Positions 43,225-61,728 of a DNA stretch of 64,000 nucleotides are shown here, piece after piece. The stretch comes from Podarcis pityusensis (Eukaryota): the NCBI GenBank assembly GCA_964106645.2, contig OZ067038.1; one strand, given 5' to 3'. The notes beneath the pieces are model-generated. The model searched no databases. It was given only the letters and a program-made list of their open reading frames with translations, and was not told the DNA's origin. A program made the position numbers and the translations under genes. The first letter of the stretch is position 1. Each line of letters begins with the position of its first letter.

Positions 43225-44396
43225 TATATAGCAGCCCTAACTTACCTGCAAATGGGATCCTCTTTAACGAGGGTCCTGGTTGCGCACGGGCCCCTGAGAG
43301 GACCCCCACCAGGTTGAAGGCGCTGAGCATGGCCCAGACCTTGTCTGTATGGCCCCACAATCACACCAGGCTGTTTGAGCCAATCAGTGCAGTTGGCGTG
43401 ATTGGTGGAGGCCTATAAAAGCGGCAGCGCGATGTGACTGAGGCACTTGCTTCATGTTGCCGAACACCTGCCCTCCCGTTCCTATTTGTAGGTGTTGCTG
43501 CTTTGGCCTCGCTTCGGGTGTTGGTTGGTCACCTGTTTTGGAACAGGGGCCAGGTAGGAATTTTTCCATTTGGCAAATTGGCAGTGTCCACTTGGTTTTC
43601 GCCTACCCCCTTAGCAATTGTCACAACTGTGTAAGGTTTGGCGGTTAGGCATTGGCTTAATGAAGTGTATGGGAGGGGAGGTGTGGCCATCACCTGCCCC
43701 TCCATGAATAAGGGTAAAGGAATCTGGGGGTCCTGGATCTTGTCCGTGTTAGGATATTTCCGTTCCACTTTAAAAGGGAGCAGGCTTTGTGAGTCACAGG
43801 GTCTGCATATTTCCTGTTCACAGGATGTTTCTGTTGTGTCTTTGCTTTCGTTTCTCTCTCTGTGTCATGTTTTCTTTGTTCTGATCAACACTGAATAAAC
43901 TTGTAAATAATGCTCTCCTGCGTGCATCTTTCGCTGTGCAATATCTACTGATAGAGCGTGCATCGGCTCTGGAATGTGGCAGGCTATTTCTGGAGCTCGT
44001 GTCGCTAATTGCTGATACTGTATCTACGGGAGATCGATGGACATCCGGAGGCGGCTTGGGGGCCATGATGGACTTTGTCTCCCTGGCAGTATTCCAACAG
44101 TCTGAAGTCCACTTGAGTGGCTAGGGCCATGCCAGGACCACAGGAACCCGGGGTGAGCTTCGTTGGTCTTCATCAATGTTGCTCCCTTGTTTGGCGTTTT
44201 TATCCTTTCAGACTCTCTGCTGGGAGGGCAGGAGTCAGTGATAGTTTGTCAGTGCCTAAGGCAATATTGCTCACTTTGCTGTAACCAATATAGTTGTGGC
44301 TGAAATTTTGCTCATTAACTTAACAACTGACACTGACTACGTGTCAGTGTGAAGTTATTTACTTGCAGAAGGGCTTGGGGGCCTCGGGGCGCAATA
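43225..44396 (+). mobile_element. Solo-LTR-like element A (5' boundary approximate)
   Basis: CCAAT (43380), TATAAAAG (43414), conserved core shared with B and C, AATATAGTTGTGGC polyA-like block (44288), 3' end CGCAATA. Confidence 0.7.
43741..44043 (+). mobile_element. Nested ~300-bp LTR-like insertion inside element A
   Basis: TGTCC...GGACA inverted termini; TTTAAAAG and AATAAA (43894) inside; absent from paralog B at the aligned position. Confidence 0.6.
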
Positions 44397-45488
44397 GACC
44401 ATCAGACAGAAACTATGGTTTTTGGAAGCATACTTTGGTATAAGAGAGTTGAGAAGATAAAAAGTTAAATATAGTAAAAGTTTGGATACATTCCAGGGAA
44501 GGAATATGAATGTGTTTATATGCAGTGAGTATCTGGCCCTATTTCTGAAAATACAAATTTTTAAAATTCTTTACATATTTGTAGCTTATATGGGACAGTT
44601 TACATGTTACTTATGCTTGATGGCAACAGATTCATTGCTATGGAGCAACACACATAAATAACTTGCTACTTTCTTTAAATTGTGCTGGCTATAAGTCATA
44701 ATACCACAACTAATTTAGCACTGATGTATGTGATACAGTGCTTCCTGATTTTAAGTTCTAAACTTATTTCTGTAATATTTGTACACTTAACTGAAAATCT
44801 ACAGTTATATTGCTTGCTTTAAAAATCCGTAAAGTACAGTGCAGCAAATATCACTATGGTTTACAATAACATTTAGATTTCACAGGTGATTAATAAAACA
44901 CCATTTGTAATAGCATACTACATGTGCTGAGTCCAGAGTAGCTATTTATTATTAAAATTAGCAGACTATGTTCCTGGTACTAGCAATACTCATTTCAACA
45001 CCTTTGAATGGTGTAGACTGCAAATACTCAAAAACAGGGGGAATGACATATTGTCGAATGGCGGCAGTAGAAGAAATATGTCCATCTATCTGTGGATGTG
45101 CTGTAAATCACAGAACCTTATTTTGGAGAAAAATCTTTCATATGTCAAATCTTAGTACCTTAACTTTGAAACAGTGAAATCGGGTGGCTGGTTATAAATT
45201 ATTATTGCATTATTATTATAAATGGTGAACACATTGGGCACAAATCTAGCTGAGGCTAACATTTCTATCTCCTATTAATTACCATAGGATCTCTACACAT
45301 ATCATAACTATTCTTGAAAGTGCTTAATGGTAGCTGGATTGGTTGCGAGTTTGGTTCTGGGGCCAATACAAGGTGCTCATATTAGTGTTTAAAGCCCTAA
45401 ACAAATTAGGCCCAAAATATCTGAAATACCAGATCGTTCCCTGCAGACGCTCTTGTGGGTTAAGATCAATAGAGGGGCCCTACTCTGT

Positions 45489-45517
45489 ATTATTATTATT
45501 ATTATTATTATTATTAT
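45489..45517. repeat. (TTA)n microsatellite after a decayed L2-like fragment
   Basis: Direct observation. Confidence 0.85.
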
Positions 45518-59546: not shown

Positions 59547-59931
59547 GTAAAGGTAAAGGGTAAAGGGACCCCTGACCATTAGGTCCAGTTGTGACTGACT
59601 CTGGGGTTGCGGCGCCCATCTCGCTTTATTGGCCGAGGGAGCTGGCGTTTGTCCGTAGACAGCTTCCGGGTCATGTGGCCAGCATGATTAAGCCGCTTCT
59701 GGCGAAACGGAGCAGCGCACGGAAACACCGTTTACCTTCCCGCCGGAGTGGTACCTGTTTATCGACTTGCACTTTGACGTGCTTTTGAACTGCTAGGTTG
59801 CCAGGAGCAGGGATCGAACAACGGGAGCTCATCCCGTCACGGGGATTCGAACCACCGACCTTCTGATCGGCAAGTCCTAGGCTCTGTGGTTTAACCCACA
59901 GCACCACCCGCGTCACAGTGCCACCCGCATC
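59547..59931 (-). mobile_element. Full-length Sauria SINE with 12-bp TSD
   Basis: TSD TATCATGCGGTA at 59538-49 and 59932-43. Confidence 0.95.
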
Positions 59932-60946
59932 TATCATGCGGTAGGGCTGAGCATAACACATGAGGAATTATAATATTTGATAGAAGGCCATATAAATATC
60001 TTAAGCTCTCCAACTGGGTTCTGTGCTTACAGAAGTAACTGCATCCAGTTTAAGAATAATAATTTATATTTATTCCACAGTTCAATAGGTGGGCATCAAT
60101 CACTCTATCTGTTATGTTTCAAGCACTTAGAAATATATTTATAATTAACTAAGAGTATGTTTTAAGACCCTAAATTGTGTATTATCTCTGCTTAATCAAG
60201 ATCTAAAAGTCCCAGTAGACTTTCAAGAATAAAAAGAACACTAAACCTAAGTGCTTTGGCTAGGTATCAAAATGGGCAATTAGTTTTCCCAACTTAAAAT
60301 TCTTCTTTCAATATAACTATTGGGAGTAATCTTCACTTTATATGATATGCTGTGGTAAAATAAAAAAAATGATGTATTCTTATGTCTGAAGTATTTATAC
60401 AGAATAGATTTTTTAAGTTAACGGTGCTTTGTAAAATGAAAGACTTTTTAATTTAAAAGACATTTTTTAAAATATTTCAACAATTTTACTTGGAAAATAC
60501 AATGCAGTCAGTCCAAAGATAAGTTTATCTTAATTAATTTTTTTACGCACATACCTGGCAACTGAATTATGACTATTTACAAGATAACAAAGCCAATTAA
60601 TTAGCAACTTTAAAAGTGCACACCCAACTCTTTGCTGAATATCAATGCTCGATGGGGAGACCCAAAATCAGACAAACTGCATTGAGGAAAGAAGGCAGTT
60701 GGTCTTTTATTGCAAGTGTACTGGTTACCTTTAGTTTCCCCCCCCCATGAAATGCTTTCTACCCCAACCCCCAACCCTTCTCTTCTCTTCCCCATTTTCT
60801 CATCAACCATAATACACTTGGCTACCAGTATCAGTTAAATAGCAATCTACACCACCCAAAGGCAGATCTAGTGCATCCACTTATTCCCAGGATGCTAGAA
60901 AATAACTCACTTGAGTACACGTTGCCGGCATGCGTAACACCTATGA

Positions 60947-61728
60947 AGTTGCGTGTTCAGACCCAGAGATCTCCCTTCTAAATAAAGACACACTTGACTC
61001 AAATTTTAGTTTTGGTTTTTGGCAAGCTTTAGGCCACAACTTTATTGATTACAGAAAAGTGAGTGGTTGCATAGGCTCTGGTTCGACTAGCTCCCTACAC
61101 CCTTGCAGGTAGCGCTGACCCAGAGCTCTAAAATGGGTCAGCCAAGGGTGAACACCGGAGGCAGGTGAAAAGCCTGGGAGCAGACTCTGTTCACTCCCCA
61201 GATGCTCCCCTGGACTCAGGCACAGGCACAAGCCCGTTTCAGGGGTTGACCAAACCAAGTTGAGTCCCTGCATTCCTTTAACGGAATACCCTTCACATAG
61301 GGATGGCAAGACCGTTCTCCCATCCCTATCACCTGAACCAGTGCCTATCCGCAACCTAACAAGTTGTGACGATTTGCTGCATGGCAGGTGAAACCCAAAT
61401 GGCAACAGCCAATCAGTCAAGTGGAGAAAATTCCTGCTGTGCTCCTGCGATTGACCTTGCTATGACAGATGACACAAGACGGCATAGCAAGGTCAATCGC
61501 AAAAGGCCCTAAAATTAGGGAGAGGTGGGCGGGTGTTCTGACGCACGAGCCAAAAGAGGAAGTTCTGGGTCACGTGCATGGGTTTATATAGGTCCCTCAA
61601 TCCGTTTAGACTGCAACCCCATTGGCCAGATTGAAACCCAGCATCGAGGAAACTACCAACTGGGTGCTGTGGCTATCCAATAGACCCACCTACAACCAAG
61701 AGGTCAGTCTCCAGATCTCACCGCAACA
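60947..61728 (-). mobile_element. Solo-LTR-like element C (sense to LRP1B)
   Basis: Minus strand starts TGTTGCGGTG; has GGCCAAT, CTATATAAA, conserved core and AATAAAGTTGTGGCC (61041-46); ends ACACGCAAC. Confidence 0.75.

Follow-up and report, generated by a model that had tools for sequence, protein, structure and literature searches.

The stretch analysed here, a window of 64,000 nucleotides from contig OZ067038.1 of the lizard Podarcis pityusensis (assembly GCA_964106645.2), contains three copies of a repeat, each carrying a hairpin with a U-rich internal loop that resembles the nuclear-expression element (ENE) of RNAs such as PAN and MALAT1. Copy A (43253-44394, + strand, 1142 nt) and copy C (60949-61755, - strand, 807 nt) were delimited by alignment and end analysis, and copy B (47265-48074, + strand, 810 nt) by depth steps and by the starts and stops of related contigs. 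BLAST and a profile search found these three copies and no others in the window, and showed, as a preliminary description of this DNA had proposed, that they are homologous; their cores are 74-76% identical over about 230 nt. The hairpin modules lie at 43553-43607 (+) in A, 47564-47619 (+) in B and 61437-61384 (-) in C, and the letters, coordinates and strands originally given for them proved exact, as did their placement on the sense strand between a TATA box and a poly(A) signal. All three modules were recovered with a structural descriptor. The middle of copy A (about 43720-44210) is about 330 nt longer than that of B and C, cannot be aligned with it, is itself folded and includes a second AATAAA at 43894.

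The family was followed in other DNA by aligning 4 of 20 listed DNA runs onto copy B and its flanks at 80% likeness, which gave 2741, 2297, 3334 and 2814 related contigs per run; the contig comparison covers 40 of 169 variant rows and the 24 loose contig ends listed of 1010. No RNA run was among the 20 listed, which speaks neither for nor against transcription. In run X1 the summed depth of 29-35 in the flanks rose to 184,000-385,000 over 47523-47651 and to about 170,000 over 47953-48038, values that are not copy numbers and are read only as very many copies with two best-covered blocks. The shape of the depth profile was identical in all four runs and its peaks correspond to the module and to both strands of the long-range helices described below. 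A depth step at 47265, related contigs that begin at 47264 and 47267 and three others that stop at 48074 fix the ends of B. Contigs in three of the four runs (X1 being possibly the source sample) bridged at least one junction of B by 31 letters or more, with no empty-site joint, and B is therefore older than the split of those organisms.

The descriptor consisted of a lower stem of 5 bp with two G-C pairs at its top, a tract of at least four U, a 3-bp upper stem and a tract of at least three U. It matched three times in the window, at modules A, B and C and on their own sense strands only, and 0.025 times per window in 40 shuffled windows; among shuffled elements, 0, 3 and 3 of 2000 matched for the three copies. 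With the G-C rule dropped there were eight matches in the window, and 22, 17 and 7 of 2000 shuffled elements matched. Because the descriptor was post hoc, written when the motif was already known, and because the copies have a single inherited origin, these counts represent one event at a level of approximately 0.1-1%. The ENE anatomy that had been claimed is present in all three copies: opposed U tracts lie between an upper stem and a lower stem whose top consists of G-C pairs. The sequence AGGAAUUUU is unchanged in the three of them and is also present in 2 of the 24 loose ends listed, both from another subfamily, whereas none of the nine columns in the linker that follows the stem is invariant. 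The two G-C pairs at the loop do not vary, the AA preceding the 5' U tract is kept as strictly as the U's themselves, and the apical loop AUUGG is kept in all copies. Two of the loose ends listed reach the 5' U tract and, although from the other subfamily, both retain AGGAATTTT.

The U-rich internal loop between two helices can be formed in all three copies, and the module is the local minimum-energy fold in A and B; in C this is true only of the lower stem. In the predicted transcript, the probability of the lower stem (calculated without tertiary contacts) was 0.94 for B, 0.08 for A and 0.02 for C, and enforcing this stem cost 0 in B, 2.0 kcal/mol in A (5.6 with the helix H1 described below) and 3.7 kcal/mol in C, a cost that might be repaid by a triplex. 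The upper stem of B had been written as CCAG/CUGG, and its fourth pair is private to this copy: non-pairing letters stand at 47581 in 81% and at 47604 in 99.5% of X1 depth. The second loop is only a 2x2 mixed-pyrimidine loop, so the two U-rich loops of a double-domain ENE (dENE), which a short duplex would separate, are not found here.

A further hairpin lies directly 5' of the module at 47537-47562 (+) in B, with a counterpart in A at 43526-43552. Copy C has in its place a near-perfect inverted duplication of 23 bp (61505-61442, -), which is probably the product of a template-switch event and which inflates the folding z-score of this copy.

The signals that would delimit a transcript are regularly spaced around the module. 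TATA boxes were recognised by motif at 43414-43420 (+) in A and 61584-61590 (-) in C; at 47425-47432 (+) in B the TATA has decayed, and TATA-like text is found at that position in 2 of the 24 loose ends listed. The distance from the left end to the TATA is 160-165 nt in the three copies, and from the TATA to the module 139, 139 and 152 nt in A, B and C, the last including the local duplication. The poly(A) hexamer is a variant in A (44287-44292) and AATAAA in C (61046-61041, -), and at the decayed position in B (47978-47983) a canonical hexamer is present in 99% of the depth. A CA follows 20-21 nt after the hexamer and then a G+U-rich stretch (59-78%), placing the predicted cleavage after 44313 in A, 48003 in B and 61021 in C.

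Folding predicts helices H0-H3, in which the strands just after the module are paired to the region of the poly(A) signal across a distance of 340-680 nt. The 5' strands, identified by folding and alignment and in B also from contigs, occupy 43613-43656 (+) in A (H0, H1 and H3), 47624-47666 (+) in B and 61335-61378 (-) in C, and the 3' strands, in reverse order and enclosing the hexamer, occupy 44248-44313 (+; H3, H1 and H0), 47940-48003 (+) and 61021-61084 (-). The end of the module lies 13 nt from H1 in every copy. In H3, three of the 12 pairs have changed on both sides across A, B and C, and the positions 47639/47984 form a Watson-Crick pair in most of the depth, copy B itself having U.U. 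The 3' strand of H0, a helix that is weak in folding ensembles, stops one base short of the predicted cut site, and a new poly(A) tail would therefore begin at the junction that carries the base of the module hairpin.

Several smaller features accompany these helices. In the internal loop that separates H1 from H0, an AAA a short way 5' of the predicted cut (44304-44306, 47993-47995 and about 61030-61028 on the - strand) is invariant in the three copies and could act as a third strand in cis. A genomic A-rich run follows immediately after the predicted cut in B (48004-48020) and C (61020-61004, -) and is missing from A; an extra A at 48016 occurs in 14% of X1 depth. The run, the GU-rich downstream stretch and the right end of B together occupy 48004-48074 (+) according to the spacing analysis. 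The next hairpin after H3 in B (47681-47715) has a GAUUGG loop resembling the apical loop of the module, and this hairpin is kept in A and C with unrelated sequence. Between H1 and H2 there is a GTAAG that resembles a splice donor, at 43631 in A and 47642 in B, and C differs there by one base.

From these observations we propose, with moderate confidence, that the module may be a single-domain ENE which clamps poly(A) and which a high-copy retroelement repeat of this lizard carries within its transcribed part. RNA polymerase II (Pol II) would start about 25-30 nt after the TATA and the RNA would be cut about 20 nt after the hexamer, as the motifs suggest. The transcribed part would close on itself via H0-H3, a fold to which the folding and the compensatory changes point and which may also form in vivo. 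The poly(A) tail, beginning at the hairpin base, would follow the G-C pairs of the lower stem via A-minor contacts and could make at most about four U.A-U triples with the loop, in the manner of ENEs of the PAN and MALAT1 type. Perhaps, by analogy with Arabidopsis Evade, deadenylation of the intronless retroelement RNA would then be slowed and the supply of RNA for reverse transcription raised.

ENEs and dENEs of transposable elements were reportedly described by Tycowski in 2016, and MALAT1-like loci of the anole lizard are said, in later work, to have been described by Zhang in 2017. An ENE is defined as a U-rich internal loop adjoining G-C pairs, and those borne by transposable elements are listed for plants, fungi, slime mould and stickleback retroviruses (PMC7583470). 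PAN, MALAT1 and dENEs are described in a further paper, which places transposable-element ENEs in and near long terminal repeats (LTRs) (PMC13541005), function has been shown for the Evade ENE (PMC12501189), and MALAT1-like elements are present in dozens of anole transcripts (PMC10869381).

With the PAN ENE of the herpesvirus KSHV the lizard module shares a stem-loop whose U-rich internal loop adjoins G-C pairs (PMC7583470, PMC13541005), an intronless polyadenylated RNA, which here is predicted, and the tail as the likely third strand. It differs in that PAN is described with five U.A-U triples and an element at the 3' end, whereas the lizard module, of predicted function only, has 4 + 3-5 U, an AA spacer and a 3-bp upper stem, and lies 340-680 nt from the hexamer, a distance bridged by the long-range helices. 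Like the ENEs and dENEs of transposable elements, it is an ENE-like fold in the transcribed terminal region of a retroelement; most plant cases, as reported, are double-domain, whereas the lizard module has one U loop, an amniote host and a carrier unlike an integrase LTR. The similarity to MALAT1, NEAT1 and the MALAT1-like loci reported from the anole is a U-rich internal loop in lizard transcripts and, in B and C, a genomic A-rich run that lies beside the hairpin base in the fold. However, no Rfam match to MALAT1-type families was obtained, the lizard module has much shorter U tracts, a hexamer appears to direct the 3' end of the repeat, and A has no A-rich run.

We found neither an ENE in an amniote retroelement nor a description of this lizard repeat family in the literature searched, which was covered mostly as titles and abstracts, with few subscription papers and no Repbase or Dfam. 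The novelty is narrower than the preliminary description implied, since stickleback retroviruses have already been reported to carry ENEs, and anole transcripts MALAT1-like triple helices. The RNA architecture of the family is well supported and apparently undescribed, and it stands even if the ENE reading is false.

A number of results weigh against the ENE reading. The 3' U tract of copy C has only three U, the AA spacer stands between the lower stem's G-C pairs and the 5' U tract, and the upper stem has only 3 bp. The module had been described as conserved with covariation, and while the conservation holds (the module is kept in 3/3 copies) and one compensatory lower-stem change does exist, as a both-sided change in C, the covariation is not significant: this is the only such change among 13 pairs, nine pairs being invariant in the three sequences, and the covariation score was equalled by 291 of 500 shuffles. 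The isolated modules, with folding z-scores of -0.83 (A), +0.16 (B) and -0.16 (C), folded no better than shuffles, and in context the module fold is a minority state for A and C. Rfam at its gathering score gave no match, and below that threshold 8 matches around A and B and 14 around C, none of them to an ENE family. Conservation alone does not distinguish the U loop, since the strands of H1-H3 match the module in this respect (16 of 20 columns). In favour of the ENE reading is an excess of G.U in the helix arms beyond the module, 21 against 3 A.C when scored in a strand-neutral way with no credit for G.U (p 0.008-0.017 against composition), which points to the sense strand as the one under pairing selection, but the arms had been picked from sense-strand folds and inherited pairs were counted repeatedly, and the count is supportive only. 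Whole-element z-scores were significant on both strands and did not separate them (8-14 shuffles).

A possible, though less probable, explanation is that the module is a real RNA element with a purpose other than clamping poly(A), that is, a signal for protein binding, packaging, export or strand transfer, in which AAUUUU is read single-stranded. This would be consistent with structure and conservation that span the whole region beyond the module, with an AA that is as invariant as the U's it precedes, and with an AUUGG apical loop that is kept in all copies and recurs in similar form in the next hairpin of B's subfamily. However, it leaves unexplained why two U tracts oppose each other over invariant G-C pairs and why the predicted start of the tail is held beside them.

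Selection might also act on the DNA, through factor sites downstream of the promoter to which the hairpin is incidental, but this we consider improbable. The loop of B and C contains a full context of what we take to be a reversed CCAAT box (the NF-Y site), the letters GGAATTT..CC are presumably kappa-B-like, and a conserved GC-box-like block lies upstream. Yet the GG-to-CC spacing differs between copies, the loose ends from the other subfamily lack the ATTGG core while still carrying AGGAATTTT, and the neighbouring helices have a sense-strand G.U bias. It is similarly improbable that the resemblance to an ENE arose by chance or that the 5' U tract is kept for Watson-Crick pairing with the A-rich stretch before the cut, as a switch. 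In favour of this, the three copies count as one event, relaxed descriptors match 0.4-1.1% of shuffled elements and the alternative pairing is good in B (-7.5 kcal/mol; 11 of 500 shuffles); against it, this pairing is weak in A (87 of 500) and C (336 of 500) and weaker than H0/H1 in all copies, and a 9-nt invariant run survives across subfamilies whose middles cannot be aligned.

The ends of the repeat bear on what kind of element carries the putative ENE. Each copy opens with a hairpin, P0, predicted by folding, of 9 bp at 43254-43277 (+) in A, where it lies outside the terminal pairing, 9 bp at 47267-47289 (+) in B and 8 bp at 61730-61752 (-) in C; its sequence differs among copies and yet 26 of 27 cells are paired. 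After P0, a G.U-rich arm of about 20-25 bp pairs imperfectly with the right end (in B, 47293-47318 (+) with 48047-48074), more strongly on the sense strand in 3/3 copies, and end and start would form one continuous sense-strand hairpin if they were adjacent. In split-direct-repeat elements the end adjoins the start, and isolated A-B units have been described, which fits this end-to-start hairpin. We therefore tentatively favour, at somewhat less than even confidence, a carrier that derives from a tyrosine-recombinase (Ngaro/PAT-like) retroelement with split direct repeats and is present as a solo A-B unit; the end/start junction would then lie in the sense RNA. Isolated A-B units of Ngaro and VIPER retrotransposons, as outlined in PMC8547959 and PMC6681497, similarly run from promoter to poly(A) signal with no clear target-site duplication (TSD), and their end and start are neighbours at the B1-A2 junction. 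They differ from the lizard repeat, for which no A1...B1A2B2 layout or recombinase gene has been seen. None of the 15 joints listed returned from end to start, few contigs covering the right end of B and 24 of 1010 loose ends being listed, and no internal coding region, A1-ORFs-B1-A2-B2 parent (ORF, open reading frame) or recombinase gene was seen in the data examined; these negative results count against the Ngaro label.

The copies had been labelled LTR-like, and as a statement about integrase-type LTRs this did not hold up well. The U3-R-U5 order expected of such an LTR, with TATA and poly(A) signal, is present. However, there is no TSD of 4-6 bp at the shared boundaries (84 boundary pairs per copy), although old copies can lose theirs; exact 4-mers in B and C would require different right ends, A has none, and none is exact at the inner TG start. 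The TG...CA terminal inverted repeat does not begin at the extreme left but about 27 nt inside, behind a hairpin common to the related contigs. An integrase-type LTR is thus an unlikely carrier. A Helitron2-type element is less likely still: on the opposite strand the repeat has Helitron2-like asymmetric terminal repeats, one terminal and the other set back by about 27 nt in front of a hairpin, and no TSD, as described for Helitron2 in PMC3627910. On that strand, however, the 5'-terminal hairpin of Helitron2, formed with the 5' repeat, was found in 0/3 copies with DNA parameters and in weak form in A alone with RNA parameters; the hairpin at the end is weaker there than on the sense strand in 3/3, and the Pol II signals face in the opposite direction. 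The hammerhead core of Penelope-type repeats was not seen by eye in the three modules, and readings as an Sm site or a 3' splice site fit B only.

The 3' untranslated regions (UTRs) of some turtle and amphibian CR1 elements may contain a motif like the module. Look-ups gave no match in the supplements of PMC11303007, in main texts or in file 2 of PMC4316615, where a motif may be hidden by line breaks and gaps. The strict descriptor had no match in the window's own CR1 tails. That a portable ENE module is common to this family and to these CR1 3' UTRs, carried here in a tail-delivering tyrosine-recombinase retroelement of which each of thousands of solo copies would be a self-contained, PAN-like gene for a short polyadenylated RNA, we regard as rather unlikely.

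Scans of viral contigs gave 0, 0 and 1 matches and scans of metagenomes 0 and 1. The match in contig L001 is a chance one, with 25% GC and no similarity to the repeat copies, and so is that in L002, which lies inside a phage ORF and has no stems. Contig L001 also contains, at 819-2279 and unrelated to the repeat, an ORF of 486 amino acids that by eye resembles a flotillin/SPFH protein.

Elsewhere in the window, an exon with two EGF-like repeats lies at 57637-57951 (-), to which A and B are antisense and C is sense; it is presumably LRP1B-like, and its comparison with the PDB gave Notch EGF matches only. The 3' end of a long interspersed element (LINE), which we take to be CR1-like, is found at 5169-5740 (-) and 62177-62233, the two 57-nt tails being 100% identical. 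A family of short inverted-repeat DNA transposons (8831-9067, 13781-14004, 17147-17376, 22052-22304 and 62289-62522) we assume to be Tc1/mariner-like, and a family of short interspersed elements (SINEs; 24201-24546, 27486-27850, 31966-32206 and 59524-59914) is presumably Sauria SINE. At 9107-9499 (+) there is a remnant in which the SH3-like domain of a retroviral polymerase (PF25597) can be recognised; it is unrelated to A, B or C.

If the ENE reading is false, a well-supported RNA architecture and the unusual ends of this family remain. With 2297-3334 related contigs per run, the family offers a natural mutational library for finding out which variants of an ENE function, such as the AA spacer, the short upper stem and the tracts of 3-5 U. 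If the ENE reading is true, poly(A)-clamping ENEs would be extended from the mobile elements of plants, fungi and fish to an abundant amniote retroelement, and in a new layout, where a long-range helix containing the poly(A) signal would carry a distant ENE to the tail.

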